In this document: one piece after another, positions 3,483-53,704 of the stretch
How the letters are laid out: the number at the start of each line of letters is the position of its first letter
Position numbering within the stretch: position 1 is the first letter of the stretch
NCBI GenBank assembly: GCA_965213925.1
Contig: OZ243927.1
Coordinates: 160,001 to 224,000 of the forward strand
Length of the DNA stretch: 64,000 nucleotides
From: Trueperaceae bacterium
Lineage (GTDB): Bacteria > Deinococcota > Deinococci > Deinococcales > Trueperaceae
Reading direction: 5' to 3'
Notes under the pieces: generated by a model
The model's database searches: none
Told to the model about the DNA's origin: nothing
The model's input: only the letters and a program-made list of their open reading frames with translations
Position numbers and translations under genes: made by a program

Positions 3483-3641
3483 CACGTAGTCGTTTTGCTT
3501 GAACCCCTCGCCGCCAACGCGAACGCCACCATCGTCACCTACAACCTCAAAGACTTTAGAGGAAGCGAGACCTTAGGCATTGATGCTGTAGACCCCGCCG
3601 AGCTTATCCGCGCACTTATTAAGAAAGGATGGACCCCATGA
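3483..3641 (+). pseudogene. PIN-domain toxin, C-terminal remnant
   Basis: Translates ..ANANATIVTYNLKDFRGSETLGIDAVDPAELIRAL..; stop overlaps antitoxin ATG; no N-terminus. Confidence 0.7.
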
Positions 3642-3928
3642 GCAGTTTGAACCTGCGTCTACCTGACTACCTCCACGATCATATCCGCGAACTAGCTAAG
3701 CGTGAAGGCGTTTCAATCAACCAGCTCATCACGCTGGCAGTAGCGGAGAAGGTCTCGGCGCTGGACGCGGCGACGTATCTACGTGAGCGAGCGAACCGAG
3801 CTGATGAGGAGGCCTACAGGGAAGTGTTTGAAGCTGTGCCTGCTGTTCCTACCGATACGCATGACGCCGTACCTGAGGATTTGCAGAGCGTGTTCAGGAA
3901 GCTGTGGCGTTTTGAACGTTGGTCGTGA
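3638..3928 (+). CDS. Ribbon-helix-helix / HicB-like antitoxin
   Basis: MSSLNLRLPDYLHDHIRELAKREGVSINQLITLAVAEKVS. Confidence 0.8.
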   Translation: MSSLNLRLPDYLHDHIRELAKREGVSINQLITLAVAEKVSALDAATYLRERANRADEEAYREVFEAVPAVPTDTHDAVPEDLQSVFRKLWRFERWS

Positions 3929-20775: not shown

Positions 20776-21807
20776 ATGCAACTAAGACTCGACCCCTGGG
20801 CTGCCGAATACAACACCGCCTATTTCGCCGAAGAGACGACGCCCGAAGAGACCACGCATGTCTACCCACATGTCGAAGCGGACACGTGGCGTCCCATCTC
20901 GCCGAAAGCTTCCGAAAGCCTCTATGGAGACCTCTTCTTCACCGACGGCAGCCGCCGCGTAGAGGCAAGGGTTTTGCTCGAGGACGAACGCAAACAGATC
21001 GCTTTTGGAGCGATTGGAACCTTTGGTATCGGCGTAGTGAGCTGCTGCTCGAGGCATTCGCGCAAGGCGTGTTTCGTGGATTTGGAGCGAGAGGTCAACG
21101 TGCGCGGCGTGCGACGTATTTGCACGCTGAGTGGTGGACATAGCCTGGCGAGCTTCGATGTGGTTTCAGCGCTGAAAGGTCAACTCGGTCAGCTTAACTA
21201 CACGGTTGTATCAACAGAAGAACGCGACGCCGACGCGGTGGTGCGCCGTATTCAGTTTGAGATGCTGAACGCGGAAAGGGCGTTAGCCTCGAGCCTCACC
21301 GACTGCTTTCCCAATGGTCTCATCCTCACCGATGGTCCTAGACCGCGCATCGGCAACGTGCCAAATGTGGTGGGTTACATCAAAACGCACCACACGCTGC
21401 CGCTGGAGAATGAGCATCTCGAGGTCGTCCGCAATTTGGAAGAGGGTCAGCGTTCACCGCTTTACCTCATCAGTAGCGGCGATAAGAGCCAAAAGGTCTT
21501 CGAGTGGTTTTTGCGCCTCCGCGACCCGCGCCCCTGGCTCTACTCCTTCGCAGGCATCGTCCGCTTGCAAGCCTACGCAGGCTCACACCCCGAAGAAACT
21601 CTGGAGCGCGTCTGCCACCTCGCCGACTGGCTCAGCACCCTTTTGCCCCGCTTCGCCACTCGTCAACACCAAGACCCACGTGCGCCGCAGCAGCTTTTGC
21701 CCGTGCGGGCGCTCGAGGCCGAACTCGGGCGGCGGATGGGGAATGCGCAGATTGTGAGGCGGCGCATCGCTCAGTACATTAGCCAGCAACAAAGAGCAAC
21801 GAGTTGA
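20776..21807 (+). CDS. nurA: NurA-family 5'-3' nuclease
   Basis: FFTDGSRR, LILTDGPR, VVGYIKTH, DPRAPQQLLPVRALEAEL; upstream of herA. Confidence 0.85.
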   Translation: MQLRLDPWAAEYNTAYFAEETTPEETTHVYPHVEADTWRPISPKASESLYGDLFFTDGSRRVEARVLLEDERKQIAFGAIGTFGIGVVSCCSRHSRKACFVDLEREVNVRGVRRICTLSGGHSLASFDVVSALKGQLGQLNYTVVSTEERDADAVVRRIQFEMLNAERALASSLTDCFPNGLILTDGPRPRIGNVPNVVGYIKTHHTLPLENEHLEVVRNLEEGQRSPLYLISSGDKSQKVFEWFLRLRDPRPWLYSFAGIVRLQAYAGSHPEETLERVCHLADWLSTLLPRFATRQHQDPRAPQQLLPVRALEAELGRRMGNAQIVRRRIAQYISQQQRATS

Positions 21808-21895
21808 AAGGACTGAGGACTGAGGTGAAAGTGAAAATCTCTTTTCTCTCAGTCCTCAGTCCTTTTCTCTTGCTTTTATCTCAGTCCTTTTCTCT
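21807..21895. repeat. AGGACTG/CAGTCCT heptamer palindrome, copy 1
   Basis: aaaggactgaggactgagg..ctcagtcctcagtcctttt; related copy at 36703. Confidence 0.7.
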
Positions 21896-21910
21896 AACTT
21901 TGGAGATGGC

Positions 21911-23773
21911 ATGACCTCTAAAAACAACAACGAAACCCCTATCGGCATGGTTTTAGGCACCGAAGACGCCACCCCTCTTCAATTCTGGATTGCTGTCGAG
22001 GACGGCGTCAAAATTCAACTCGACGACATCCTCACTGTCAAGGTGCAAGACCCCTCGGACGAGGACGAAGCCGTGACCTTTTACGGCGTGGTGGACGAGG
22101 TGCGCCGCCGCTTTGAGGGCGTGCAGTTCGACGGGGACACCGCGCTCGTCACGCAAGGGCTCATGCCCGCCAATATTGCGTATGCGGCGCATATTCTCGT
22201 CACCCGCGTCGAACCCGAAGACTTCATCCCACCCGGTCCCGGCGATTTGGTCTACATGGCGACGGATGCGGCGCTAGAAAAAGCCCTCTACCTCGACAAC
22301 ATGGACGCGCCCCTCCCCGCAGGCGTCCTGCGCAACGGCGAGCCCGGTTACCTCAACTACGACTTCATCAGCGGGCAAAAGGGCGCACACATCAACATCT
22401 CGGGCATCTCGGGCATCGCCACGAAGACCTCTTACGCGCTCTTTTTGCTCTACAGCATCTTCAACGCCCAGCACCGCGAGCGCGGCGGCAGCCTCCTCAC
22501 GAACCCGAACGCGACCAAAGCCATCATCTTCAACGTCAAGGGCGAAGACCTGCTCTTTTTGGACAAGGAGAACAAGGACTTTGTCGAGACGGAGCGGAAG
22601 TGGCAGGAGAAGCGCAAGAGCGCGGAGACCCGTTTTCAAATCTGTGATTTGCCTGTCGGTCCCTTTCCGAGCGTCGCCCTACACGCGCCCGCGAGGGAGG
22701 GGAGCACCCTCCGCGCCGACGTGGAGACCCGCGAGGGCGTCTCTCCATACCTCTGGACCCTGCGCGACTTCGCCGCCGAGCGGATGCTGCCTTTCGTTCT
22801 GACAGACCGCGACGCGATGACGAACCTGGGCTTTCTGGTCAGCCACTTGGAGGAAAAGCTCGCCAAGCTCGCCGAAAAGCAGCGTGGACCTTATCTCGAG
22901 GTTGCCGACGAAGACACCGGCTACCGCCCTGGTGAAGAACAAATCGGGCGCATCAGCGAAACGGACGCGCTCGGGGCGGAGGACTTCATGACCTCTTCGC
23001 ATAAACCTCGTTTGACGACCTTTTTGGAGCTGGTGGACTACATCGAGTACAAGCTACTGCTCGAGGGAGCCGAAGACGAGGAGAGCAGCAAAGGCGGCAA
23101 CCGCGCCTGGACCGCCAACCAAGCCAAAGCGACCCGCGAAGCCTTCATCCGCCGCTTGCGCGGGGCGTCCAAGCATTTGCGCCACCTCATTCGCGGCGAC
23201 TTGTCCCAAAAAGAGGTCAGCCGCAGCCGCCTCGACATCTTGAACAGTGAAAAACAAGTTCACGTCGTGGACATCCACAACCTCGCGCCCTTAGCGCAGA
23301 TGTTCGTCGTCGGCGTCCTCTTAAAGCAGGTCTTCGGCGTGCAGGAGTCGCGCAACAGCAAGGGTCAGGTTTTCGTCGTCTTAGACGAACTGAACAAGTA
23401 CGCGCCCGCCGAGGGGGACAGCCCCATCAAGGACGTGCTCTTAGACATCGCCGAGCGCGGGCGCAGCATGGGCATCGTCCTCATCGGGGCGCAGCAGACC
23501 GCCTCCGAAGTGGAGCGCCGCATCGTCGCCAACGCCGCCGTGCGCATCGTCGGACGCCTGGACGCCGCCGAGTCCGAACGCAGTGAATACCGCTTCATGC
23601 CCGCCACCTTCCGCCTCCGCTCCACCATTCTCGCCCCCGGCACGATGGTGGTGCACCAGCCCGACGTGCCGAGCCCGATGATGCTCAGTTTTCCTTTTCC
23701 GGCGTGGGCGACGCGGAGGAAAGAGGTATTGGAGGAGGTGGGGGATGAGGAGGCGTTGGATGTGTTGGGGTGA
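21911..23773 (+). CDS. herA: HerA/FtsK-superfamily ATPase
   Basis: HINISGISGIATKTS, FVVLDELNKYAP, DIAERGRSMG. Confidence 0.9.
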   Translation: MTSKNNNETPIGMVLGTEDATPLQFWIAVEDGVKIQLDDILTVKVQDPSDEDEAVTFYGVVDEVRRRFEGVQFDGDTALVTQGLMPANIAYAAHILVTRVEPEDFIPPGPGDLVYMATDAALEKALYLDNMDAPLPAGVLRNGEPGYLNYDFISGQKGAHINISGISGIATKTSYALFLLYSIFNAQHRERGGSLLTNPNATKAIIFNVKGEDLLFLDKENKDFVETERKWQEKRKSAETRFQICDLPVGPFPSVALHAPAREGSTLRADVETREGVSPYLWTLRDFAAERMLPFVLTDRDAMTNLGFLVSHLEEKLAKLAEKQRGPYLEVADEDTGYRPGEEQIGRISETDALGAEDFMTSSHKPRLTTFLELVDYIEYKLLLEGAEDEESSKGGNRAWTANQAKATREAFIRRLRGASKHLRHLIRGDLSQKEVSRSRLDILNSEKQVHVVDIHNLAPLAQMFVVGVLLKQVFGVQESRNSKGQVFVVLDELNKYAPAEGDSPIKDVLLDIAERGRSMGIVLIGAQQTASEVERRIVANAAVRIVGRLDAAESERSEYRFMPATFRLRSTILAPGTMVVHQPDVPSPMMLSFPFPAWATRRKEVLEEVGDEEALDVLG

Positions 23774-23865
23774 AGTAGAAGATGAAAAATTTAGTTTGTG
23801 TTGCAGACTTGCTTTGTTAGCAAAATCATGGATTAGTAATTGTCAAGTAGATAAGGCTTCTTTCC

Positions 23866-24747
23866 ATGTTTGAAAATTTTGATTTCAGTTTGTTGGATGA
23901 TGAAAACTTTAAGGAAGACTCCGTAAGAGAAGAGATTATTGTTCCTATTGTTAAGCGGTTAGGTTATAGCGCATCTGGAGAAAACAAGATTATACGTAGC
24001 AAAGCATTATCACACCCTTATTTATCAATAGGTTCACAGCGAAAAAAACTGTCACTTGTTCCTGATTATCTTTTTTTAGTAGATGGGAAGCCTTATTGGG
24101 TACTAGATGCTAAATCTCCGAAGGAAAACTTGCTAAAAAGCAAGCACGTTGAGCAAACTTACAGCTATGCTATCCACCCTGAGGTGAGGGCAAGATTCTA
24201 TGCCTTGTGCAACGGTAAAGAGTTTCTACTGTACGAAATCAACAGGTTCCACCCAGTTTTACATTTTTTAGTTAGCGATATACAAGAGCATTGGGAGCAC
24301 CTCTTTAGAATTCTCCATCCTAGATATTTAGCACATACAGAAGTGGTTGAGTATCAACCAGATTATGGCTTACATCTACAGAGGTTAGGCTTTGAAACAG
24401 GTTTTAGGCTCATGCAAATGCGTATCCACACAGATTTCTTCGGTAAAATTGCTGATAATCAATACACAACTATTACAGCAACTGAATGGGAAGGACAACT
24501 TTACGCAGTTTCTTTGGATTTTGACGAGTCCCAACTCAAGCAGCTTATAGAAATACTGCCTGAGAATTTGGCTAAAGACTTAGTGAACGTTCTAATGCGC
24601 CAGCCTTTTTATACTACGCCGAACCAAAAAGAATTTCGATTCGGTGCTATTGCTGATCTCGGTAGCTTGATTCATAACAATGCTGAAGAATCTTACAGAC
24701 CATTTGAGGTTGTTGAATTTTTACCTTACTTGATTGATGAGTCTTAG
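23866..24747 (+). CDS. Stand-alone HsdR-N-type (PD-D/ExK) restriction endonuclease-like protein
   Basis: KEDSVREEII, VPDYLF..VLDAKSP, EQTYSYA, FYALCNG; visibly AT-rich. Confidence 0.75.
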   Translation: MFENFDFSLLDDENFKEDSVREEIIVPIVKRLGYSASGENKIIRSKALSHPYLSIGSQRKKLSLVPDYLFLVDGKPYWVLDAKSPKENLLKSKHVEQTYSYAIHPEVRARFYALCNGKEFLLYEINRFHPVLHFLVSDIQEHWEHLFRILHPRYLAHTEVVEYQPDYGLHLQRLGFETGFRLMQMRIHTDFFGKIADNQYTTITATEWEGQLYAVSLDFDESQLKQLIEILPENLAKDLVNVLMRQPFYTTPNQKEFRFGAIADLGSLIHNNAEESYRPFEVVEFLPYLIDES

Positions 24748-24757
24748 ATGCCTAAGT

Positions 24758-24777
24758 GTGCGTTATACTATACGCAC
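24758..24777 (+). promoter_or_regulatory. Palindromic operator overlapping -10 (TATACT) of the yefM remnant
   Basis: GTGCGT-TATACTAT-ACGCAC. Confidence 0.5.
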
Positions 24778-24779
24778 GT

Positions 24780-25005
24780 AAATCCTCAACCACACCACAG
24801 CCTGTAAGAACCTAGCTAACACCATAGATGAGGTCATAGACGACCACACCCCCTCCTCATCACCAAAGGCAGCGACAAGGCTGTGGTCATGATGAGCTTG
24901 GACGACTAGAACGCTTGGCAAGAGACGATGCTCTTGCTGCGCAGCCCCGCCAACGCCGAACGCCTCTTAGAAGCGACTCGAGACTTTGAGAAGAGAAAAT
25001 CTAAC
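24780..25005 (+). pseudogene. yefM: YefM/Phd antitoxin pseudogene
   Basis: KNLANTIDEVIDDHTP/LLITKGSDKAVVMMSLDD*NAWQETMLLLRSPANAERLLEA; lost start, frameshift, internal TAG. Confidence 0.85.
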
Positions 25006-25006
25006 T

Positions 25007-25048
25007 GAGCTGCATATCGTGGCGTTGCGGTATCACGACTCGAGCTAA
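25007..25048 (+). repeat. yoeB 3'-end repeat, copy 1
   Basis: gagctgcatatcgtggcgttgcggtatcacgactcgagctaa = ELHIVALRYHDSS*. Confidence 0.85.
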
Positions 25049-25089
25049 TGACCTCTTCCGTCTGATGTTTTATGCGCTAGAATACCCAC

Positions 25090-25326
25090 GTGCCTACGGT
25101 CTTACGCATCGGACCCTACAGATTTTTCTTCTACGCGAACGAAAATGACGAACCTGCTCATATCCACATTCAGCGAGACCGTGCCCTAGCGAAGTTTTGG
25201 CTTAGACCTGTTTCGTATGCTAGCAGTACGGGTTTCTCAGCTCGCGAGTTGTCCAAATTGCGTAAACTTGTAGAGGAGAACCGAACGACCCTCGAGGAGA
25301 CTTGGAATGACTTCTTTAGCCGCTAA
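25090..25326 (+). CDS. DUF4160-family protein (putative TA component)
   Basis: MPTVLRIGPYRFFFYANENDEPAHIHI..AKFWL. Confidence 0.85.
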   Translation: MPTVLRIGPYRFFFYANENDEPAHIHIQRDRALAKFWLRPVSYASSTGFSARELSKLRKLVEENRTTLEETWNDFFSR

Positions 25327-25573
25327 TCTTGTCCTTGCTGACGCTGTCGAATGTACAGACGACGAAATTATCGTTTCTTTATCCGATGGGCGTAGCTTGT
25401 CTGTTCCTATCGTCTGGTTTCCCCGCTTAGCGAACGCGAGCCCTGCGGAGCGTGCCGATTATGAACTTTTAGGTCGCGGCGAGGGTATCCACTGGGCGCA
25501 GGTGGATGAAGATATCTCAGTCGCTGGACTTTTAGCGGGCAAGCCTTCCGTTGAGTTTAGGCAGAGCAACTAG
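25307..25573 (+). CDS. DUF2442-family protein (partner of DUF4160)
   Basis: LSDGRSLSVPIVWFPRL..GIHWAQVDEDISVAGLL. Confidence 0.85.
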   Translation: MTSLAANLVLADAVECTDDEIIVSLSDGRSLSVPIVWFPRLANASPAERADYELLGRGEGIHWAQVDEDISVAGLLAGKPSVEFRQSN

Positions 25574-25576
25574 ATT

Positions 25577-25634
25577 TGCCGTGTTCGAGGAGATAAGCTC
25601 GCGTACTGTGGCGTTGCGGTATCACGACTCGAGC
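25577..25634 (+). repeat. yoeB 3'-end repeat, copy 2
   Basis: tgccgtgttcgaggagataagctcgcgtactgtggcgttgcggtatcacgactcgagc aligns to 27575-27631. Confidence 0.85.
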
Positions 25635-25774
25635 CGACCTCCGTTCGCAAAAGATGGTGTAGAACACTTTATGGGTTTCTCGAGTAGATAGCAGAAGGTT
25701 TCTCGAGCCCCTATAAGTGCGTAACTCTCATCTGCATACGGCGTATTCGAGACTCTTGTAGAATCAAAGAACAG

Positions 25775-27478
25775 ATGGCAACGGTTCTTCTCAACACAAG
25801 TACGGCTACCTTGAATGAACTCATCAGCAACGGGCGCGTGTTTAGGGTTCCGCCGTTCCAGCGTGACTACTCTTGGACAGAAGAAGAGTGGGAGGACTTA
25901 TGGCTTGATATTCTGGAGGTGTCAAGGGAGGAAGAGCCTTTTCACTATATGGGCTATGTGGTTTTGCAAAGCGACGGCAGTCGCAACCTCACGATTATTG
26001 ATGGACAGCAGCGAATTACAACGCTCAGTATTTTAGTGTTAGCGGTTATCAAATTGTTGGAAGATTGGGCAGAAGAAGGGGTGTTGCCAGAGGAAAATAG
26101 GTAGCGCCAAAAGCTTTTGAGAGATAGATTTATCGGTCAAACTGACCCCTCTTCGCTCATCTCTGTCAGCAAACTCTTTCTTAACCGAAACAACGATGAC
26201 TTCTATAAAAGCCGACTGTTACGCCTGCGCCCACCTAACAATATACGGAAGCTCAAGCCCTCGCAAAAGCTGCTTTGGGGAGCATTCGAGTATTTCTATA
26301 GACAGCTTAAAGATAGGTTTAAGGACCAGAAAGATGGTGCTGCGCTCACACGATTTCTGAACGAGACGGTTGCGGATAACCTCTTATTTACTACAATTAC
26401 GGTTGCCGATGACCTCAACGCTTATAAAGTTTTCGAAACTTTGAATGCCAGGGGTGTACGCCTTTCGACAACAGACCTTCTCAAAAATTTTCTCTTCTCT
26501 ATTGCCGCTAAAGGGGGCGAAGCAGAGCTTGATGAGGCAGAGAGGCAGTGGCAAAGTATCAATGATAGCCTAAGCGCAAGAGATTTCCCTACATTTTTAC
26601 GTTACTACTGGAACTCGAAACATTCCTTTCAGCGGAAGCAAACACTTTTTAAGGCTATAAAGTCAACGATTACGACCTCAGAGGGCGTTTTTAGCCTCAA
26701 CGATTTAGAAGACCTCGTGGAAGTCTACGCCGCGCTATCTCAACCTGCTGATGACCTTTGGGAGAAAGAGCAAGTCAAGTGGATAGACGCGCTTTCTCTT
26801 TTCAAGGTTAAGCAGTGCTATCCGCTTCTTCTTGCTGCATATAGAAAGCTTGATGCCCAAGAATTTACTAAACTACTAAGGTTATGCGTTGCTATCTCTT
26901 TTCGTTACAATGTTATCAGTGGATTGAATCCAAATACTCTCGAGGATGTCTATCATAGAGCAGCGATTAAGGTAAACTCTGGTCAAGTATCAAATGCTAT
27001 AGGCGTTTCTACGGAACTTAGAACAATCTATATAGATGACGAGCGATTCAAAAGCGCTTTTTCGCTAAAGACTCTACCTGTACAACGTAACCGGAAGCTT
27101 GTGCGTTACATCCTTTTCGAGCTTGAAAATCAGCTTGCTACGGCAGGGTACGACTATAAAGAAGATACTAAAGCGACTATAGAGCATATCTTACCCGAGA
27201 ATGCTCCCGAAGCGTGGGATACCTTTTTCTCACCAGAAGAGCAAGATAAAGCAACGGAAAGGTTGGGCAACCTCACTCTGCTTGAAGCACAGAAAAACAA
27301 GGAATGTGCTGACAAACTCTATGAGCAAAAACTGCCTATTTACGAAACAAGCATCTATAAGCTGACAAGCGAAAGAAGCACTTTTAGCGAATGGACACCA
27401 ACAACTTTGAAGAGCAGGCAAGAGAGATTAGCTGACTTAGCTGCAACGGTTTGGAAATCTCCCTTCAATACAAGATGA
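25775..27478 (+). pseudogene. DUF262/DUF1524 (GmrSD-like) nuclease with one in-frame TAG at 26102-26104
   Basis: VPPFQRDYSW, IIDGQQRITT, FETLNARG, TIEHILP, LGNLTLL; the two ORFs are in the same frame, 12 nt apart. Confidence 0.88.
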
Positions 27479-27631
27479 GCGTCCCCATACGAGGGGCTAG
27501 GCAAACCCGAAGCGCTCAAACACAACCTCTCCGGCTGGTGGTCACGGCGCATCACAGACGAACACCGGATGGTTTACCGCGTTCAAGGGGATGAATTTCA
27601 TATCGTGGCGTTGCAGTATCATGACTCGAGC
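27479..27631 (+). pseudogene. yoeB: YoeB/Txe toxin 3' half (repeat copy 3, longest)
   Basis: PYEGLGKPEALKHNLSGWWSRRITDEHRMVYRVQGDEFHIVALQYHDSS; begins directly after the GmrSD stop. Confidence 0.92.
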
Positions 27632-27686
27632 CAACCCTCAAACCTAGCTCGAGTCCACACTTCAAAAGTTTTCAGCCCTATTCGCC

Positions 27687-27869
27687 CTAAAAGTCGAAGT
27701 CTATCTCTTCGCCAGTATCCTCTAAAGACGCTAGAATCTCCGCGCTGACCTCATGACGCTCCCACCATGCCGTAACCTCATCATCTGACATGAGGTCGAA
27801 GTTCGGCAAATCTTCAGGGTCGGTGATGACCTTGTGGTGCGTATCGCGGCGGTTGAGAACGTCACTCAT
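27687..27869 (-). CDS. Short BrnA/CopG-type antitoxin-like protein
   Basis: LPNFDLMSDDEVTAWWERHE; overlaps BrnT-like stop. Confidence 0.6.
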   Translation of the reverse strand: MSDVLNRRDTHHKVITDPEDLPNFDLMSDDEVTAWWERHEVSAEILASLEDTGEEIDFDF

Positions 27870-28153
27870 TGTTGTCTATTATAGCTGATTCGGTCTTGCT
27901 TGAACGCATCGAGTGAGGTCTTGAGGTAGGCTGACCCATCCGATTTGTGGATAACGATAGACCTCAAAAGCCTATCTGTGTAGGTCAGTCCTATATACAA
28001 GTAGGTAATCTCTTTCGCCTTACGGTTGCGTTTAACGAGGAAGCGGCGCAGGTTGGGATCATCTAGCGCCTCGCGAACCTCATCAGGTAGAACGCGGTGC
28101 TTCGTCCAAATTTTATCTTCAATGCTCGGCGCAATCGTCAGTTCGAACGGCAC
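27866..28153 (-). CDS. BrnT-like toxin
   Basis: IEDKIWTKHRVLPDEVREAL..YIGLTYTDRLL. Confidence 0.65.
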   Translation of the reverse strand: MPFELTIAPSIEDKIWTKHRVLPDEVREALDDPNLRRFLVKRNRKAKEITYLYIGLTYTDRLLRSIVIHKSDGSAYLKTSLDAFKQDRISYNRQQ

Positions 28154-28216
28154 GGTTTAGACATACCATGTGCTGCGCGGCTCTGACAATCTTGAATGCT
28201 TGCTCGAGACCGTCAG

Positions 28217-28254
28217 GAATTTCCGCTGCTTTGCGCGATTACGACTCGAGCCAA
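28217..28254 (+). repeat. yoeB 3'-end repeat, copy 4 (degenerate)
   Basis: gaatttccgctgctttgcgcgattacgactcgagccaa. Confidence 0.65.
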
Positions 28255-28285
28255 TCCCTCCAACCCTCAGTGCTACAATGTCCCT

Positions 28286-28519
28286 ATGCAAAAACCGCTT
28301 GACACCCTTACGAGTGACGCGCTAACGCTCCCGGAAGACCAGCGTCTCACGCTTGCCCACCGTTTGCTGAGCAGCCTCGAGCCACAAGAAGCTAAAGAGG
28401 TTGAAGCGGCGTGGGACGCTGAGATTAGGCGTCGCACTCGGGCTTACGACGGAGGAGATGTGCAGAGTCTTTCTGCCTCTCAGGTCTTTCAAGAGGTGGA
28501 TGAACGCTTAGCCAAATGA
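28286..28519 (+). CDS. Addiction-module antitoxin
   Basis: ALTLPEDQRLTLAHRLLSSL..VEAAWDAEIRRR; TACAAT 6 nt before ATG. Confidence 0.85.
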   Translation: MQKPLDTLTSDALTLPEDQRLTLAHRLLSSLEPQEAKEVEAAWDAEIRRRTRAYDGGDVQSLSASQVFQEVDERLAK

Positions 28520-28810
28520 CGCCCCAAGTTCCTAGGCGAAGCGCGAGATGAATTTTTAGAGGCTGCAACCTGTTACGAGGAGAAAGAGGCAGGGCTCGGC
28601 GTCCGGTTTCGAGATGAGGTGGTCAGGGTCTGTGCGAGCATCCTCGCAGACCCGCTACTCTGGCGCGAACGTGAAGGCGGTTATCGGCGAGTCAACTGTC
28701 CAGTTTTCCCTTTTCATGTCGCTTATTTCATTCGTGAAGAGCGTGTCATCGTCGCCGCTATAGCGCATGGTCATCGCAAGCCGAACTATTGGCGAGAACG
28801 GCTTGAGTAA
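28516..28810 (+). pseudogene. RelE/ParE toxin with +1 frameshift after codon 3
   Basis: ATGACGCCCC then KFLGEARDEFLEAATCYEEKEAGLG..YRRVNCPVFPF..IAHGHRKPNYW. Confidence 0.82.
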
Positions 28811-28811
28811 A

Positions 28812-28847
28812 GATATTGTAGCGTTGCGCTATCATTACTCGAGCTAA
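28812..28847 (+). repeat. yoeB 3'-end repeat, copy 5
   Basis: gatattgtagcgttgcgctatcattactcgagctaa = DIVALRYHYSS*. Confidence 0.85.
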
Positions 28848-28875
28848 CTATCAAATCCCTGCGTGCTAAAATTTA

Positions 28876-29140
28876 ATGATGACACGCGAAGAGGTCTACC
28901 ACACCGACCCTGAGACTTTAGGCGGCACGCCCGTCTTTATAGGGATACGTGTGCCGGTCCAGACCTTGCTCGATTACCTCGAGGGCGGCGACACCCTGGA
29001 TGATTCTTGGACGGTTTTCCCGGTGTGAGCCGTGAGCAGGCGGTCTCTTTTCTCGAGCTGGCAAAGGACGCTCTCTTAGCGGCGTGAAAGAGATGTTGTA
29101 GGGCGAAACTGTAGACCGGAAGACGCAACGCTTGTTTTGG
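28876..29140 (+). pseudogene. DUF433 antitoxin-like gene (frameshifted) plus a trace of its PIN-like partner
   Basis: DPETLGGTPVFIGIRVPVQTLLDYLEGG../FLDGFPGVSREQA; followed by degenerate VKEML*GETVDRK. Confidence 0.78.
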
Positions 29141-29192
29141 TTTATTTTTCATGGGACAACAGCAAGCATAGAAGCGTGGCGAGACACTTCTT

Positions 29193-29295
29193 ATACGAAA
29201 TTGCACAGTTTACTTACCCTAGCTGAGGGCGTTAGAGCTTACCATCATAGATGGGCACGGCTTAGTTTTGCAAACTAAGCCGTGCAACCTCGTAT
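29193..29295 (+). repeat. ~103-bp MITE-like family A, copy 1
   Basis: ATACGAAATTGCAC..GTGCAACCTCGTAT; near-identical to 32303-32405 and (reverse) 53603-53704. Confidence 0.9.
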
Positions 29296-29296
29296 T

Positions 29297-29430
29297 ATAC
29301 CCTTTCCGGTTAAATACGAAATTTATCTCGTATTTAACCCGAGCGAATGCGAGTAGAAACCGCTACGGATTCCGGTGAGTAACGGAAAAATGCGGATGCA
29401 TTTTGTAGTGGATTCATCCGGAATCCGTAT
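29297..29430. repeat. Deinococcus-type small non-coding repeat
   Basis: Hairpin GGTTAAATACGA..TCGTATTTAACC, CCGAGCGAATGCGAGTAG, ends CGGAATCCGTAT; resembles Deinococcus intergenic repeats (from memory). Confidence 0.6.
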
Positions 29431-29469
29431 TAGCCGTCAACTTGTAGCGGAGAGCGTTTCCGCACATTA

Positions 29470-29504
29470 AGGAAGCCCCGCTCGAGCCTCGAGCGGGGCT
29501 TCCT
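29470..29504. terminator. Strong hairpin downstream of rpsA
   Basis: AGGAAGCCCCGCTCGAG-C-CTCGAGCGGGGCTTCCT. Confidence 0.7.
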
Positions 29505-29600
29505 GTTACTTGGCTTGTTGCACGCAACTGTTATCTCACAATATGCGTACCGGTCAAGGGTTTGCTCAGTTTAGCGCGTCCATGACCAGGAATACCTCAT

Positions 29601-31973
29601 CTACGCCTCAGAGGTCTCTCTTTCGGCTTCTTCTTGCGAATCCTGCTCGCCTTGCTCTTGCTGCGCCGGACGCCGCCCTTGTCGGAAAGCGGCGGTCAGC
29701 ATCGCAGCGGCTTCGGCGGCGTCGATAGCGTTCTCGGGGTCTTCGGACTCTCCGGAAGAGGTCTGCTCAGCTTGCGGCGCGGCTTGTTGCGCGGCTTGTT
29801 GCGCGGGCTCTTGCGCGGGTTCTTGCGCTTCGGTCTCCTGGGTGTCAGCTTGCGCGGGAACTTGCGCTTCTAATTCCTGCTCGCTCACCTCGGCGACCTC
29901 TTCGACCTCGGCGGTCAAGGGTTCACTGCTCGGCTGCGTATCGGGCATGGAGGTCTGCTCTTGTGCCTGCGGACCTTCCTCGCTCTTCTGCTCTTCGGAG
30001 CCACCCGTATCCCCTAAGCCAAACTGCGCGAAGAGGTCGGCGTAGACGTCACCCAACTTGGTGGTGGTCTTCGCGCCCGAATCAGAGGCGGCGTAGGAGT
30101 AGTCGTAGTCGATGCCCTGGCTGCGGCGGCCGCCCCGGCGACCTTTACGTCCGCCGCCACGGTTGGAAGGTGCGCCCGAGGGTGCGCCCATGCCCATGTC
30201 ATCGCCTGCGGAGTAGGGTAGGAGGCGCTTGCGCGACAAGGACGCGCGCTGCTCGATGGGGTCGATGTTGAGGATAACGGCGGTGACTTCGTCGCCTCGG
30301 CTGAAGTGCTGCGAGACGTCTTCGATGTGCTCGTGGGCTAGCTCGCTGATGTGAACCAAACCTTCGATGCCCTCTTCGATCTCCATGAAGACACCGAACT
30401 CGGTCATACCTGTGATGGGTCCGGTGATCTCGGTGCCGGGCGGGAAGCGGTCGGGCAGGCTGCTCCAGGGGTCGGGCTGCGTCTGGCGCAGACCTAAGGA
30501 GATGCGCTGCTGGGCGACGTCGATTTTGAGGATCATCGCCTCGACGTCTTGACCTTCTTCCAAAACCTCTTTCGGATGGCGGATGCGCTTCGTCCAGCTC
30601 ATTTCAGAAACGTGGATAAGCCCCTCTAAGCCAGACTCGATCTCGACAAACGCGCCGAACGGGGTGAGGTTCGTGACCTTACCCTCGACCTTTTGACCGA
30701 TGCTGAAGTTCGCTAGCACATTCTCCCAGGGGTCGGCGCGGAGGGACTTCATAGACAGGTTAATGCGCTCGCGCTCTAGGTCCATATCTAAAACTTCGAC
30801 GCGGACCTTCTGACCGACTTCTAAAACCTCTTTAGGGTGGTTGAAGCGTCCGTAGGAGATTTCGCTGCGGTGGACTAAACCGTCGATACCGCCCAGGTTG
30901 ACGAACGCGCCGAAGTCGGTGATTTCAACGACTTCACCCTCGAGCTTCGCGCCCGGCTCCAACTTGCGGAGCGTCTCCTCTTTTTGCCCCGCGACCTCTT
31001 CTTCGATGATGCTGCGGCGCGAGATGATGACGCGGTTGCGCTTGCGGTTGAGTTCGATGATGCGCACTTTGAGGCGCTTGCCGACGTAAGGCGCGAGGTC
31101 GTTGACGCGGCGCACATCCACCTGGCTCGCGGGCAAGAACGCGCGCACGCCTAAATTCGCGACCAAACCGCCGCGCACCTTTTCGACGATTTCGACCTCG
31201 ACGGGCATCCCTTTGTCGTAAATATCTTGCAAGAGGTTCCAGGCGCGTTCTTGGTCGGCGCGTTTCTTGGACAAGATAATCGTGTTGTTCGGAATGTCCA
31301 CACGAATAGCGTAGACTTGCAGCTCATCACCGGGCTTGAAGTACTTGGCGGCCTCTTCGGCGTTGGCTTCGAATTCGAAGAGCTGATTGTAGGGAACCAG
31401 ACCCTCGATCTTCGCGCCGACGTCCACGACGAGACCGTCTTGCGACAACATGATGACGGTGCCCGTGGTGAGCGTGCCCCTATGGATGGGCTTGCGGGCG
31501 AGCTGCTCGTCACTAGCCGCCATAACCTCTTCCATCGTCATGTTGTTGCCGCTGTCGTCGGCGCTGTCAGCACTGTCCGCCACGCTTGCGATCTGCTCGG
31601 TGGCGTCGGCGACCCCTTCAGACGTTTCAGAGGTCACAGCGTTCTCGCCCTCTGCTGAGGTTCGAGGTGCGGCGTCGCTCGTTATCCGAACGCTTCCGGT
31701 ATCTGCGTCGGCTTGGCGGCTCGTTTCGGCTACATTTTGAGTCGTGTCGTCTTGAGCTGCACTGTCTTGAGCTGCACTGTCTTGAGCTGCACTGTCTTGG
31801 GCTGCACTGTCTTGAGCCACATCGCTAGAGGTTTCTACGGGAGCCACTGCCTCGCTTACACCCTGCTCAGCATCCGCAGATGGGGTCTGTTCAGAACGTT
31901 CGCTCGTGGCTTGGTCGGTGGTGGAGACGCCTTCTAGGGTGTTGTCTCCAGCCTGGTTTAATTTATCGTCCAT
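29601..31973 (-). CDS. rpsA: 30S ribosomal protein S1 with long acidic N- and C-terminal extensions
   Basis: S1 repeats: [50 protein letters not shown]. Confidence 0.95.
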
Positions 31974-32302: not shown

Positions 32303-32405
32303 ATACGGAATTGCACAGTTTACTTACCCTAACTGAGGGCGTTAGAGCTTACTGTCACAGATAGGCATGACTTTGTTTTGCAAACAAAGTCATGCAACCT
32401 CGTAT
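32303..32405 (+). repeat. ~103-bp MITE-like family A, copy 2
   Basis: ATACGGAATTGCAC..ATGCAACCTCGTAT. Confidence 0.9.
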
Positions 32406-32415
32406 TGCGCCCAAC

Positions 32416-41722: not shown

Positions 41723-41760
41723 ATCCTAAAGCTTTACGAGTTTCTGTCAAGAGGTTGTCA
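41723..41760 (-). promoter_or_regulatory. Promoter (TTGACA-16-TAGGAT) with 11-bp-spaced TGACA repeats
   Basis: Minus strand TGACAACCTCT-TGACAGAAACT-CGTAAAGCTTTAGGAT. Confidence 0.45.
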
Positions 41761-42211
41761 GCGGTTCATCAGCCCTGCTAACGTCCAAAACGGGCGCGAG
41801 CGCTAGCCGCACGCCAACCGCGCGGGCTTGCTCGCGCAGCACCGCCGCCATCTCACCGATACGTTCCGGCTCCCAAGTGCAGCCTAAGCCGATGGGCTGC
41901 GGAAAGGTCGTCGCTCCCCAAGCGATCAGCCCCGCCAAACACTCGTCGTGAAAGAGCCCGGGGACGGAGGAAGATTCCAGCACCACGCGCTGAATCTCAT
42001 TGGTCAGCTCGGCAGTCTCCCGCGGACCACGCCCACTCAGCGCCGCCAGGCGCGTAACCTGACCCATACCACGTGCTAAAACCTCTTGCATCTTCGTCTC
42101 GTCAAGCTGCCCGTCCGCCAGCACATCCGTGAGCATCACCGCGCCGAGCTGGGCGATCTTTTCCTCCAGGCTCATCTCCGCGATGAGCGCGTCTAATTCG
42201 GTGCTAGTCAT
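41747..42211 (-). pseudogene. GH3 beta-glucosidase N-terminal fragment
   Basis: MSLEEKIAQL, HDECLAG, ATTFPQPIGL, LAPVLDVSR, then truncated. Confidence 0.85.
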
Positions 42212-45071: not shown

Positions 45072-45976
45072 ATAGCAACCATTTCAGAGAACAAGGTGAA
45101 CAACACCCAACCCCAGGAGGAAAAACGACTCGGCAGCGTTTTTATCCTCTTCCCCCTACTCGCCGCCCTTTTAATCGCCACCATGCTGACGCCCGGCGGC
45201 GTCCGGCAGAGCTTAGGCTCCACCCAAATGTACCGCAACTCATCCGTAACTTGCCCGTCCCCGCTCAGGTTCAGCCGCAGCTCGTAGACGCCTACCGCTC
45301 GGCGGTAGGGCAGCTCGGCAGCTTGACCTCAGGCCTCTCGAACGGCCTCGAGACCTTCGTCTTGAGGAACACTCTCGTTAGCGACCTCACGACGATCACC
45401 AGTAGCCTCATCGACCTCTTCGCCCTCTTGGCGCTGACGAGCTATATGCTGATGCCGCAGGTGACGCGCCTTCTCGTCCGCGTGTTCCCCGAGCCTCATC
45501 AGCCCACTGCTAAAGATGTAGTGAGCAAGTTCGAGCACGCCGTCGGCGGCTACTTTCGGGGGCAGCTTCTGATCGCCAGCACCGTCGGGGCGATGGTCGG
45601 TCTGGGGCTGTAGTTGCTCGGCGTGCCTTTAGCGCTCTCCTTAGGCTTTCTAGCAGGTCTGTTCAACCTCGTGTCCTATCTGGGCGTGATCATTTCGACG
45701 CTGCCCGCCCTGCTTTTAGCGGCGGGCGTCGGGGGGTGGCAGGTGCTGGGCGTGCTGGGCGTGGTGGCGGCGAATCAGCTCGAGACCTACATCCTCTCGC
45801 CCATCATCTTGAGCCGCAGCACCCAGCTTCACCCAGCGGCGATCATTATCGCTATCCTGATCGGCGCGAGCTTGAGGGGTATTGTAGGTGCACTCGTTGC
45901 GGTGCCCCTAGTCGCCTTTCTCAAACTCCTCTATGAGGACTACTACTAGAAGAGTCATTTTTATGAGAAGGGCTGA
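45072..45976 (+). pseudogene. AI-2E family transporter pseudogene
   Basis: VGGYFRGQLL..GL*LLGVPLA..NQLETYILSP..LHP; RBS followed by ATA, frameshift and stops. Confidence 0.8.
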
Positions 45977-47220: not shown

Positions 47221-47560
47221 TTTTTACGGCAGGCTACCTTCTGGCGGGGCTGGCGTTTGCGACCTCGAGCTGCTCGTGCTCATTGGATGAATTTATCGGT
47301 GCGTTCGCCATCACCTGCGACGTGACGGTCATCGCTGCTGGGCTCGCATTAGGGGCGCTCTTCGTGCGCTCGTTGACATTTCTGATGGCGGAGAAGGAAC
47401 TACTGAAAACTCGGTGTTTCTCAGGCACGGGGCTCACTATACGATTGGCGCGTTAGCGCAGATTATACTCTTAGGAGTGAGCCCAGCGGTGCAGGTGCCA
47501 GAAGCAATGACAGGACTCGTCGGGGTGATGCTCATCAGGTTGGCGGCGCTACCGTTGAGG
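47216..47560 (+). pseudogene. DUF475/TerC-like membrane protein C-terminal fragment
   Basis: SLDEFIGAFAIT..IAAGLALGALFVRSLT../LRHGAHYTIGALA. Confidence 0.7.
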
Positions 47561-47657
47561 AGGCGCTTGGACGTTGTCGAGGTGGGAAAGAAGCCGATTG
47601 AGCACGTTGCAAAGCGTTCTCGTCTCTCGCATTGCAGCCCACGAGGTCTGGTCGGCT

Positions 47658-48326
47658 CTACTCCCGGTCCACAAGCTTAGGCAACGGATCATAGACAACA
47701 CGTTCGCAGTGGAGCGGGTTCCCGCTCGAGACCCCCAGGTGTAGATGTGGTGGTGTATCCGCAGCGTTGCCCGTCGTGCCGACGTAGCCGAGCAGCGTGT
47801 TGGTTGCGACCTCTTGCCCCTCAAAAAGTCTGTCGGCGTAGCGCTCTAAGTGCGCGTAGTAGTAGCGCAACCCACCCGCGCCTATAACGGTCACGGTCTT
47901 ACCTCCTAGCCTGCGCTCTGAAATGCGCCAAACGAAGCCGGATGTCGCCGAGTAGATAGGGGTGCCACGCGGCGCGAAGATATCTTGACCCGCATGAATA
48001 CGCCCACCCCCACGCGGTGCGCTCCAGGTATCGACAACCTGATCGGCGCGCACACCCTCGACGGGCATAACAAGCCTTGCGTCAGCCTCTTCGGGGAGTC
48101 TTTGCAAGTAGTCGGGCAGGCGCTCTAAGTACACCTCCCACTCGTCCACCTCACGCTGCCACTCGAGCCTCTGTGCTTCATTCGTAGGCTGCCACGAGGG
48201 GAGGCAGCCGGTTTGGGCAAATGAAGATGGAAGTCCGAGGAAAAATCCAACCGCGCATAGAAGCAGACCTCTGATCAGCACCTTGCTCGTTATGTTATCT
48301 CCGTCCATATCACGCATCAGCCTCAC
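47658..48326 (-). CDS. M23-family metallopeptidase
   Basis: HAGQDIFAPRGTP, YYYAHL, GTTGNA..PHLH. Confidence 0.9.
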   Translation of the reverse strand: MRLMRDMDGDNITSKVLIRGLLLCAVGFFLGLPSSFAQTGCLPSWQPTNEAQRLEWQREVDEWEVYLERLPDYLQRLPEEADARLVMPVEGVRADQVVDTWSAPRGGGRIHAGQDIFAPRGTPIYSATSGFVWRISERRLGGKTVTVIGAGGLRYYYAHLERYADRLFEGQEVATNTLLGYVGTTGNAADTPPHLHLGVSSGNPLHCERVVYDPLPKLVDRE

Positions 48327-50359: not shown

Positions 50360-50885
50360 CGCCAGCCTGAAAACTTCGATGTTTTCGCGAAAGAGGGGGC
50401 ACCACCTACAGCTTCGATACGGAGGCGGGGACGTTAGAGGTCACGCCCTTGGGTCACGCTTTGCTCTTGCTCGAGCTAGGCGACACCGTCATCCACGTTG
50501 ACCCTTACAGCGAGGTTGCCGACTACAGCCAACAGCCCGACGCGGACTGGGTCTGGATCACCTACGAACACGGCGATCACTTAGACCCAGCCACTCTGCA
50601 AGAGGTCGTAATTGAGGGAACGCGCTTTGTGATGGACAGCTACTCAGCCAAACAGTACACCTCGGAAGGTGCGGGAAGTGGAGGCGCAGAGAGCAACATC
50701 AACATCATGGCGAACGGCGACAGCTTAGAACTCGATGGCTTCACCTTGCAAGCCGTCCCTTCGTATAACATTGTGCGCGAGCGCGACGGCGGGCAGAAGT
50801 ATCACCCCGAAGGCTGGTACAACGGGTACGTGCTAGAAATCGGTGATTTTCGGTTGCACATCGGCGGCGACACCGAGTGCGTGGG
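50360..50885 (+). pseudogene. MBL-fold hydrolase fragment
   Basis: IHVDPY..ITYEHGDHLD..VPSYN..KYHP..GGDTE, then truncated. Confidence 0.75.
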
Positions 50886-50889
50886 ACGC

Positions 50890-51221
50890 GCTCGATGTGC
50901 AGAGCCACGGTGTAGCGCTCACACCTGACGAGCAAGAGGTGTGGGTGGCGGACAACGGCAACAAATACTTGCACCTCTTCGACGTAAGCGCTCTACCGAA
51001 AGAGGCTCCGACATATCTCGAGAGCATTGAGCTGCCGAGCCGACTGGATACAGTTTTCACGCGATGGACGTTTTGCCTACTCGGGAGGCGAGGTGATCGA
51101 CGCCGCCACACGGCAAGTCGTCGAGAAAACGTCGTCCGCTAAAGTGCGCATCCAAATCGACTTCGTGAACAAAAAGCCTATCCACGCCTATGTGCGTTAC
51201 GGGCTCAGGTATGAAACTGAC
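50890..51221 (+). pseudogene. YncE-like beta-propeller C-terminal fragment
   Basis: SHGVALTPDEQEVWVAD../WIQFSRDGRFAY; frameshifted. Confidence 0.65.
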
Positions 51222-51384: not shown

Positions 51385-51780
51385 GTGGACGCCCTCGAAC
51401 TCCAACTCTCGCCCGACGCGCAAGTTGCTTTAGAAGCGCGCGCAACCGCCCATGCCCGCTCTTTGGAGGAGGAAGCGCGCGCCCTCCTCGAAGCAGCGCT
51501 CGCGGTCGAGACGCCCAACGACGTTCAGCTCGAGCAACTCACTGTTTTAGACGACGCTCAACTGTGGCAAGTTGCCAAGCAGCGTGTCGCAGACGAGCAG
51601 AGCGAACGGATGCAGGCGCTCGTCGAACGGCGGCAGCGCGAAGGTCTCACGCCCGAGGAAGCTACCGAAGCGCTGCGCTTACAGCGCTACGCCCAACAGG
51701 TGATGCGCTTGCGGGCTGAAGCGGCAGCGCTACTTAAGCGCCGGGGGCACGAGGTCGACAGCCTGCTCACCTCTTCTTAA
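51385..51780 (+). CDS. Putative antitoxin (RHH-like N-terminus) upstream of HNH gene
   Basis: LEARATAHARSLEEEARALL; LDDAQLW..RLRAEAAALLKRRGH. Confidence 0.65.
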   Translation: MDALELQLSPDAQVALEARATAHARSLEEEARALLEAALAVETPNDVQLEQLTVLDDAQLWQVAKQRVADEQSERMQALVERRQREGLTPEEATEALRLQRYAQQVMRLRAEAAALLKRRGHEVDSLLTSS

Positions 51781-51789
51781 CCTCAATAG

Positions 51790-52218
51790 GTGTCGAAAAC
51801 CAAGCTATCCCTCGCTCTACGTCGCGAAGTGGCGGCGCATTTCAACTTCCGCTGCGCCTATTGTCAAACCCAGGAAGCGGTAGCAGGGATGCGCTTTATG
51901 GTGGATCACATCATCCCAGAGGTTCTCGGAGGCAGCAGCGATACCGCGAACCTCTGCCTCGCCTGCTGGGACTGCAACCTCGCTAAGGGGCAGCGGGTCG
52001 CCGCGACCGACCCGAACACAGCTCAGCTCGTCCCGCTCTATCATCCGCGCCAACAAGTATGGCGTGAGCACTTCGAGTGGGTGGAGACAGGGCTGAATAT
52101 TGCGGGTAAGACAGCGAGCGGCAGGGCAACAGTTGAAGCCTTAACGCTCAACCGTGAGGCCCTGGTGCAAGCGAGGCGGCTCTGGATTGAGGTGGGCTGG
52201 CACCCGCCTAACGCGTAG
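51790..52218 (+). CDS. HNH endonuclease
   Basis: RCAYC, VDHIIP..GG..NLCLACWDCN, LYHPRQQVWREHF, GRATVEAL. Confidence 0.9.
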   Translation: MSKTKLSLALRREVAAHFNFRCAYCQTQEAVAGMRFMVDHIIPEVLGGSSDTANLCLACWDCNLAKGQRVAATDPNTAQLVPLYHPRQQVWREHFEWVETGLNIAGKTASGRATVEALTLNREALVQARRLWIEVGWHPPNA

Positions 52219-52697: not shown

Positions 52698-53603
52698 ATG
52701 AAAAAGCAAGGCGTCACCATCCTAGTGCTCATATTGGCGTGGGGTTCGCTTGCCCTCGCCCAGACCCCCGACGAGGAGATGAGACAAATTAAGGGTGAGT
52801 ATCGAGCGCTCATCACCGCACAGCAACCTTCTAGCGGCGACCTTAGCGAAGACGAAGAGATGAGAGAGATTAAGCGCGCGTACAGAGCCTTCAGACTCGA
52901 GCAGCAGACCGAAGCGCTCTCGAGAACCCTCGAGCTAAGCTTCGTCAACCATTTACAAGCAGGCATGGCCGCCGAACAAGACGTTCACCTCGAGCATGAG
53001 GGTGTGGGCGGCGTGTTTCGGGTTACAGCTGAAGACACTGACATGGTCACGATGCTCTACGCCGCTGCTGATGGCAAACACCACGACCCGACCAACCCGG
53101 ACGCGGTCGGACCCTTCTCCAAAGGCGTTCCTTTGGGCGTAAAGTTGGGTGATTGGCTGGCGGGCAGCGGCGAAGCTGAGGTCACGTGTCGTGACGGCTC
53201 GGCCACCATCAGCGCGAGCTTTCAACAGCTGGTTCCTAACGGCGTCTATACGCTCTGGTACTCGTTTATCGCCCTGCCGCCCACCTCACCCCTGAGCGTC
53301 ATGAACTTGCCTTTAGGCACCCGGGACGGCTCACAGAACGGCTTTGTCGCAGATGAAAACGGCAACGCGGTCTACGCGCTCGAGCTTGCCCCCTGTTTGC
53401 AGTTATCCACCGACCAGGTGGGCACGATGCTCGCGCTCAACTACCACAGCGACGGCAGAACCTACGGATTTGACCCCGGACAATTCGGCTACAACGCGCA
53501 CGTTCAACTCTTTGCGCTGCTCCCGGTTGATGAGGCGGGGGTAGCTGACGTAGAAAAGGACAACGCAAAGAGGAGTAAGCAAAACGAGTCCTACGCTTAT
53601 TGA
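52698..53603 (+). CDS. Secreted hypothetical protein
   Basis: Signal peptide ending ALA-Q; LVPNGVYTLW, YHSDGRTYG motifs. Confidence 0.75.
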   Translation: MKKQGVTILVLILAWGSLALAQTPDEEMRQIKGEYRALITAQQPSSGDLSEDEEMREIKRAYRAFRLEQQTEALSRTLELSFVNHLQAGMAAEQDVHLEHEGVGGVFRVTAEDTDMVTMLYAAADGKHHDPTNPDAVGPFSKGVPLGVKLGDWLAGSGEAEVTCRDGSATISASFQQLVPNGVYTLWYSFIALPPTSPLSVMNLPLGTRDGSQNGFVADENGNAVYALELAPCLQLSTDQVGTMLALNYHSDGRTYGFDPGQFGYNAHVQLFALLPVDEAGVADVEKDNAKRSKQNESYAY

Positions 53604-53704
53604 TACGAGGTTGCACGACATAGTTTGCAAACTATGTCGTGCCCATCTGTGATGGTAAGCTCTGACGCTCTCGGTAAGGAGAAGTAAACCGTGCAATTCC
53701 GTAT
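53603..53704 (-). repeat. ~103-bp MITE-like family A, copy 3
   Basis: Reverse complement of 29193/32303 family. Confidence 0.88.

Follow-up and report, generated by a model that had tools for sequence, protein, structure and literature searches.

Within a 64,000-nt window of the Trueperaceae contig OZ243927.1, we identified an array (the 24780..29140 region; all positions are those of the window) in which five direct repeats alternate with four small gene modules. All five repeats stem from the end of a gene encoding the toxin YoeB: each lacks the 5' part and retains between 10 and 51 of the final codons (30–153 nt). The feature itself is real and statistically solid. Judging from the sequences of the repeats and their boundaries, we favor, at roughly an even chance of being right, a history in which integrase-less cassettes, each carrying a yoeB tail, would have been inserted one after another, by single crossovers, into a resident yoeB gene at its 3' end.

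The repeats have their right ends at 25045, 25634, 27631, 28251, and 28844, and we searched for them across the whole window in three ways. A repeat finder recovered the family as four copies of 43 nt and five copies of 28 nt, with the 28-nt copies showing 82–89% identity to copy 1. A 24-nt core gave four matches at ≤3 mismatches, compared with 0.00 expected from 100 shuffles; copy 4 has four mismatches to the core and so fell outside that search, and was recovered by the repeat finder. A profile made from the five copies recovers all five, by construction, and nothing more in the window, the next match having an E value of 1. Within the window, the repeat family is confined to the array. The longest exact tract shared by any pair is the 27 nt common to copies 1 and 2, the other nine pairs sharing 8–16 nt, and the tract ACGACTCGAGC(C), 11–12 nt, is exactly conserved among copies 1, 2, and 4.

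The assignment to yoeB is clearest in copy 3, a 51-codon piece that matches Pfam YoeB_toxin over positions 33–79 of 80 (E 7.7e-20) and TIGR02116 (E 9.4e-19), and that is 92% identical over 50 aa to an 86-residue YoeB relative (P0001), ending LHIVALRYHYSS. A preliminary description of this DNA had already taken the five direct repeats for yoeB 3' ends and the longest for the 3' piece of a YoeB/Txe toxin gene, and the repeat finder, core search, tblastn, and profile agree with it. The 5' part of yoeB was not found anywhere in the window by tblastn with full-length relatives. No copy encodes a complete YoeB RNase with Glu46, Arg65, His83, and Tyr84, as all five are 5'-truncated and four carry Asp84.

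As the preliminary description also proposed, the repeats combine a fixed right end with variable left ends. The common right end, ACTCGAGC, coincides with the natural end of the yoeB reading frame. Eight of the 120 best YoeB relatives terminate in YSS or YSSL, and the fixed right end is therefore simply where the frame ends. The left ends fall at codons 36/37, ~67, 74, ~77, and 77. At the four forward junctions, the yoeB-like sequence starts −2, 0, 0–3, and 2–4 nt from the stop codon with which the preceding, complete gene ends; these distances are shorter than the eight other spacers of the island, which span 22–140 nt (rank P 0.002), and this marks the cassettes as trimmed units rather than random debris. 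The earlier claim that repeats begin close to stop codons thus stands with its exact offsets corrected: copy 2 begins at 25574, directly after the TAG of DUF2442 rather than 3 nt on, and copy 4 is convincing only from ~28222. A fixed boundary at a gene end, paired with a variable boundary that abuts the insert, in copies that form a series, is by analogy what integration leaves behind when it duplicates the 3' end of a gene.

Two further characters divide the copies. Copies 1–4 have GAC (Asp) at the position of YoeB Tyr84, whereas copy 5 has TAC (Tyr) followed by a TAA stop. Among the 120 relatives, position 84 is Tyr in 116, His in three, Ser in one, and Asp in none. One study of YoeB reports that Tyr84 takes part in catalysis and that the Y84A substitution abolishes activity (PMC3814384). 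In addition, a CCTC box lies 4–10 nt beyond the gene end in copies 1–4 and is absent from copy 5; its presence in four of five copies has P about 2-3e-5, for a motif picked post hoc. The Asp codon and CCTC box shared by copies 1–4 would fit a family of sites carried on the cassettes, next to one gene end that was already resident. With both the Tyr codon and the stop codon retained, copy 5 is probably the displaced end of the resident yoeB, and the DUF433 gene beyond it is probably the original downstream neighbor of that gene. Copies 1 and 5 differ by four synonymous and two nonsynonymous codons among 11, which suggests that they derive from two once-coding alleles rather than from one duplicated target.

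Table 1. Features of the array and its flanks, in window order
Feature	Position	Strand	Evidence or remark
herA-like ATPase gene, left core flank	21911..23773	+	weak Pfam DUF87/HerA match; GC 0.61
HSDR_N / PD-(D/E)xK-like stand-alone gene	23866..24747	+	Pfam HSDR_N E 4.3e-5, below cut-off
yefM pseudogene	24770..25008	+	PhdYeFM_antitox positions 28-72 of 74, E 1.7e-10 (TAG read as X)
Repeat 1: yoeB codons 74-86 + TAA	25007..25048	+	tblastn, in-frame ELHIVALRYHDSS then stop; overlaps yefM TGA by 2 nt
Cassette A: DUF4160 (25090-25326), DUF2442 (25307-25573), both intact	25049..25573	+	Pfam E 2.3e-17, 6.6e-21
Repeat 2: yoeB codons ~67-86, 1-nt frameshift, no stop (CGA)	25574..25637	+	tblastn ICRVRGDKL / VALRYHDSS
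Cassette B: GmrSD / HEC-06-type nuclease gene (25775-27478)	25638..27478	+	Pfam GmrSD_N, GmrSD_C
Repeat 3: yoeB codons 36/37-86, open throughout, CAA for stop	27479..27634	+	YoeB_toxin E 7.7e-20
Cassette C: inverted two-gene operon, 95-aa (28153-27866) + 60-aa (27869-27687)	27635..28221	-	open reading frames
Repeat 4: ISAALRDYDSS, most diverged tail, CAA for stop	28222..28254	+	82% identity to copy 1 over 28 nt
Cassette D: Unstab_antitox antitoxin (28286-28519), ParE-like frame (28520-28810)	28255..28810	+	Pfam E 3.3e-12 (antitoxin)
Repeat 5: yoeB codons 77-86, Tyr84 + TAA kept	28813..28847	+	tblastn IVALRYHYSS then stop, 100% identity to P0001
DUF433 gene, 1-nt frameshift near 29010	28876..29087	+	Pfam DUF433 E 2.8e-9
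rpsA (ribosomal protein S1), right core flank	29601..31973	-	Pfam S1, five stretches, E 3.2e-79; GC 0.60

The modules that the repeats bound are unrelated to one another, as had been proposed. Measured from one repeat end to the next, the units are 589, 1997, 620, and 593 bp long. The GC content of the island units is 0.38–0.55 and varies from unit to unit, against 0.60–0.61 in the herA and rpsA flanks, differences that fit separate foreign origins. Several module assignments of the preliminary description need correction. Cassette A is as described, and in cassette D, the Unstab_antitox gene is intact. The GmrSD gene (PADLOC HEC-06, E 1.5e-46 and 2.5e-163) is split by an in-frame TAG at 26102–26104; the ParE-like frame matches ParE_toxin over positions 6–88 of 89 (E 1e-5) and has no in-frame start codon; and the DUF433 gene is frameshifted. 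For a BrnT/BrnA-like identity of the pair in cassette C, the sole hint is a sub-threshold match to Pfam BrnT_toxin (E 0.018); BrnA is unsupported by every library searched, and the 60-aa open reading frame (ORF) has zero matches in any of those profile libraries. One ORF runs from copy 3 into this cassette, and a search of protein sequences with it gave no candidate.

The array does open with a yefM pseudogene, as first described. It is full-length and lies 5' of copy 1, such that the antitoxin gene of the Phd/YefM family expected beside yoeB is present, but as a pseudogene. Three-frame translation reveals at least four lesions: an ATA start, a TAA at codon 4, a TAG within the frame (24907–24909), and a frameshift near 24853. 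Across the array, three 1-nt shifts occur at or beside short base runs and may reflect errors of sequencing, an explanation that does not hold for the in-frame stops. Because TAG ends 12 of the 45 Pfam-supported ORFs in the window, the in-frame TAGs look like nonsense mutations rather than recoding. Besides yefM and GmrSD/HEC-06, a third gene of the window, for an AI-2E family transporter, is interrupted by a TAG (45611–45613). By eye, each module appears to have its own promoter, which the consensus scan does not back: it gave four promoter and six terminator sites, not above shuffles (6.2 and 6.5), and none of the −10-like boxes read by eye 5' of cassette genes was among the promoter sites.

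How might such an arrangement have arisen? We propose that a resident yefM–yoeB locus between herA and rpsA served as the insertion point and that at least four small cassettes would have entered there, one after another. Each cassette would consist of one toxin–antitoxin (TA) or defense module, followed directly by a 5'-truncated copy of the last 30–153 nt of yoeB, and every insertion would be a single reciprocal (Campbell-type) crossover within the yoeB 3' end. A circle bearing a truncated yoeB tail, recombining once with the resident yoeB, would produce exactly this architecture, no matter whether a site-specific enzyme or the recombination machinery of the host carried out the crossover. 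After each event, a truncated yoeB tail would remain beyond the cassette, and repetition would yield the present alternation, with copies 1–4 coming from a related family of cassette-borne sites and copy 5 being the displaced resident end. The enzyme may have been a trans-acting site-specific recombinase acting on a short invariant core (ACTCGAGC and its neighbors), or the crossovers may have been the work of host homologous recombination. Insertion would also disarm YoeB, as the cassette-borne tails carry Asp84 and three end without a stop codon, and a disarmed toxin would account for why yefM subsequently decayed and the 5' part of yoeB was lost.

For serial insertion speak the five yoeB tails, the lack of any yoeB 5' piece in the window, and the limitation of the family to the array. 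The preliminary description had pictured the locus as a landing pad for TA and defense cassettes; the characters shared by copies 1–4, the GC content, and the missing integrase fit that picture, whereas the lack of an intact yoeB at the head of the array and the several pseudogenes do not. Other observations weigh against serial insertion as well. Copy 1 comprises only 13 codons and is fused to the yefM stop, and none of the 66 ORFs (≥70 aa) across the 64 kb belongs to an integrase, transposase, resolvase, or other recombinase family, which agrees with the initial impression that no integrase was visible. The shared exact tracts (27 nt in copies 1 and 2, otherwise ≤16 nt) are, in the present state of the copies, short for homologous recombination. 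The lesions in GmrSD, ParE, DUF433, and yefM make the array look as though it has not been active recently, and the pseudogenes suggest that it is old. Finally, serial insertion leaves unexplained why a stop codon immediately precedes the tail of each cassette. In integron cassettes, gene and site adjoin with comparable tightness.

Searches beyond the window also failed to find the same site elsewhere. We scanned representative genomes of 185,579 species, with 10-kb flanks, for the degenerate core GCNTTGCNNNATYAYNACTCGAGC, a pattern that requires particular codons, and found two loci with one match each, in a Verrucomicrobiota metagenome-assembled genome (MAG) and an Acidobacteriaceae MAG. Neither match lies within a YoeB gene, and we rejected both as chance matches. 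Among plasmids, blastn with the whole array returned 25 records, all with 2–3% coverage on generic YoeB or DUF262 genes, and tblastn with the closest full YoeB returned 811 records, the best at 72.6% identity, with no Deinococcota among the 40 listed. Among phages, blastn returned one irrelevant record. The window contains no tRNA or tmRNA genes, and the 23500–29700 region has no Rfam match at E up to 1. In the open-access literature searched, we found no description of stacked cassettes attached at a toxin gene end, whether of yoeB or of any other toxin. Also considered were a dif/Xer-type site and a retro-copy origin of the 5'-truncated repeats; nothing in the sequence points to either, and no search was aimed at them.

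A bolder version of serial insertion would make the locus a new kind of gene-capture platform of Deinococcota. Promoter-bearing TA and defense cassettes would use a mimic of a toxin gene end as their recombination site and would be stacked at the yoeB 3' end by a recombinase encoded elsewhere, or by none, each insertion swapping Tyr84 for Asp and disarming the toxin. This would in effect be an integron-like system without attC or IntI, feeding on addiction modules, and we consider it unlikely. A variant that would trace the exact trimming at stop codons to cleavage of an RNA intermediate in the ribosomal A site is bolder yet and less likely.

The array might also be a graveyard of independent yoeB-bearing modules, in which a full yefM–yoeB pair once ended each module or its carrier element and deletions left only the tails, with no shared insertion mechanism. 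The island is rich in damaged genes, the differences between copies 1 and 5 are mainly synonymous, as between separate alleles, and the copy 1 junction could, from its sequence, be a deletion between two TGA triplets. Such a history is nevertheless improbable: the spaces between the modules contain neither a remnant of yefM nor a 5' piece of yoeB, all four forward junctions fall at a stop codon (the same rank P of 0.002), and neither the Asp codon, seen in 0 of the 120 relatives, nor the CCTC box shared by copies 1–4 is expected of independent functional genes.

A different route, raised in the preliminary description, is homology-facilitated illegitimate recombination, which relies on anchor homology at one end of an incoming linear DNA and illegitimate joining at the other. 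Here, the yoeB stretch would be the anchor and the other end would have joined at microhomology, possibly followed by gene conversion. The lineage is Deinococcota, which include competent members, the window holds no integrase, and the yoeB-like sequence begins within or right beside the preceding stop codon, with TAG at copy 2 and TGAG at copies 1 and 3, which could represent microhomologies of 3–4 nt. Linear capture fits the array less well than serial insertion, however, and we give it little credence, since an anchor gets replaced rather than duplicated, the donor would need the junction between gene stop and yoeB tail beforehand, and the shared Asp codon is left unexplained, the Asp and CCTC of copies 1–4 requiring extra gene conversion restricted to the last few bases.

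The compact layout, with a site directly after each gene, and the TA cargo also recall a cluster of attC sites lacking an integron integrase (CALIN), in which the repeats would be attC sites that fold as single strands. An attC site is an imperfect palindrome whose R'' and R' boxes pair and whose boundary reads G/TTRRRY. We folded the five sites on both strands and found no single-strand fold common to them, with one of the ten folds having a z below −2; that fold is at copy 5, where a 10-bp stem with the 3' end of ParE can form (z −3.4), and the folds of copies 1, 2, and 4 are no more stable than those of shuffled sequences. The boundary here is ACTCGAGC followed by YRA and not G/TTRRRY, one cassette is inverted, and no intI is present among the 66 ORFs, all of which makes a CALIN very improbable. 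The hairpins formed by CTCGAG beside copies 3 and 4 are unremarkable, because this hexamer is 3.5–6-fold over-represented across the window, occurring 116 times in 64 kb compared with 20 expected from base composition or 34 from a first-order Markov model. It is by far the commonest 6-nt palindrome of the window, the runner-up occurring 45 times. An assembly artefact, in which strain variants differing 3' of yoeB were stitched in series at shared bases, is barely credible despite the 27 identical bases in copies 1 and 2 and several split genes in the window, as the five copies differ in length and sequence, the flanks of each are unique, only one pair shares >16 bases, and a 99%-identical HerA lies on a 4.39 Mb contig, suggesting a finished chromosome.

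The island has core genes on either side. The relatives of the herA-like product, named HerA-like or ATP-binding, come from Trueperaceae MAGs and Truepera radiovictrix (72–76% identity), and the 99%-identical HerA cluster has 14 member sequences. The gene also has weak matches to the PADLOC mad8 and HerA models, and a weak NurA-like ORF (E 0.14) lies directly 5' of it, the two spanning 20776–23773, as in nurA–herA pairs. The HSDR_N-like gene is part of the island, yet has no bounding repeat. Its GC content of 0.38 is the lowest of the island, it ends 22 nt 5' of the yefM pseudogene, and it is the sole nuclease-fold gene adjoining the array. It matches the N terminus of a PADLOC type IIG REase (E 2.3e-5), its nearest Atlas clusters are HSDR_N hypothetical proteins, and no solved relative was found by sequence.

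Several other features of the window are worth recording. At the distal island edge, between the DUF433 pseudogene and the rpsA terminator, the noncoding stretch 29230–29450 folds at −92.8 kcal/mol (z −8.1) into three long hairpins, a stability reached by 0 of 200 shuffles, and has no Rfam or plasmid match. A dispersed noncoding repeat of ~104 nt occurs at 29193–29296 (+), 32303–32406 (+), and 53603–53704 (−), with 85–88% identity; all three copies are intergenic and keep the pairing of a 14-bp hairpin through changes on both arms, and the first has no Rfam match. Further gene fragments occur at 41747–42211 (glycosyl hydrolase 3, N terminus only), 47414–47680 (DUF475, tail only), and 50449–51142 (a split metallo-beta-lactamase-fold gene), and the region holds many pseudogenes or sequencing indels. 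Small addiction-type genes also lie at 3629–3928 (a HicB-like ORF) and 51385–52218 (a FitA-like ribbon-helix-helix ORF, then an HNH endonuclease ORF), and the profile search of the window places no yoeB-tail repeat near them. Finally, 55512–58778 encodes a 1088-aa BTAD/NB-ARC/TPR protein with the architecture of a STAND-type NTPase.

Defense and TA genes cluster in islands, and, integrons apart, it is largely unexplained how single small modules get there without mobility genes of their own. In the present locus, such modules sit at a toxin gene, and repeats mark their boundaries cleanly. If relatives gain or lose modules at the repeats, the array would represent a second, structurally different route of cassette stacking and a concrete case of insertion neutralizing an addiction toxin. 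If relatives show nothing of the kind, it would be a one-off fossil of serial integration, and even then would serve usefully as a worked example in annotation, where the five toxin-gene fragments would otherwise be overlooked.

Set beside known systems, the array has partial likenesses to four. Integron arrays consist of short units of one gene or operon, each directly before its recombination site, stacked and often with TA cargo. Integron arrays, including those without an integrase, resemble the present one in their stacked short units, in the site directly after each, and in TA cargo; attC sites, however, are structured palindromes recognized as folded single strands, whereas the repeats here derive from coding sequence, share no fold, and have another boundary motif. 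Unlike integron cassettes, each module here also appears, by eye, to have a promoter of its own. The Tycheposon islands of Prochlorococcus, with their partial tRNA copies, match the anatomy of a duplicated gene end (10.1101/2020.12.28.424599). They differ in having a tRNA or tmRNA target, tyrosine recombinases, and replication genes, none of which we see here.

A third likeness is to cis-mobilizable elements (CIMEs), the remnants of integrative and conjugative or integrative and mobilizable elements (ICEs or IMEs) at the 3' end of a target gene. One account describes the tandem accretion, by successive site-specific integrations, of elements that have lost their integrase (PMC5704250), and CIMEs resemble our array in accretion of this kind: gene-3'-end repeats, the five yoeB tails, likewise bound the four modules here. 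CIMEs are decayed larger elements beside an intact target gene, usually with a related integrase-bearing element nearby. In contrast, the array is made up of single tidy modules trimmed to the stop codon, its target is a truncated toxin gene represented at the proximal end by 13 yoeB codons after the yefM pseudogene, and no integrase occurs within 64 kb.

The fourth is prophage e14 of Escherichia coli, at which the two copies of the icd end differ mostly by silent changes. A published account gives e14 as flanked by icd and a C-terminal pseudogene, icdC (PMC13626634). Insertion of e14 (and of phage 21) within the 3' part of icd produces, as here, a second gene end that lacks its 5' part and lies beyond the element. 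Prophage e14 is a single 15-kb element that has its own integrase and restores a working icd, whereas the present array comprises four modules of 0.6–2 kb with no integrase, and their substituted ends, with Asp for Tyr84 and the stop lost, would inactivate the target rather than restore it. The class of mechanism is already known, then; what is unusual here is a toxin gene as target, minimal integrase-less cassettes, and substituted ends that would inactivate the target.

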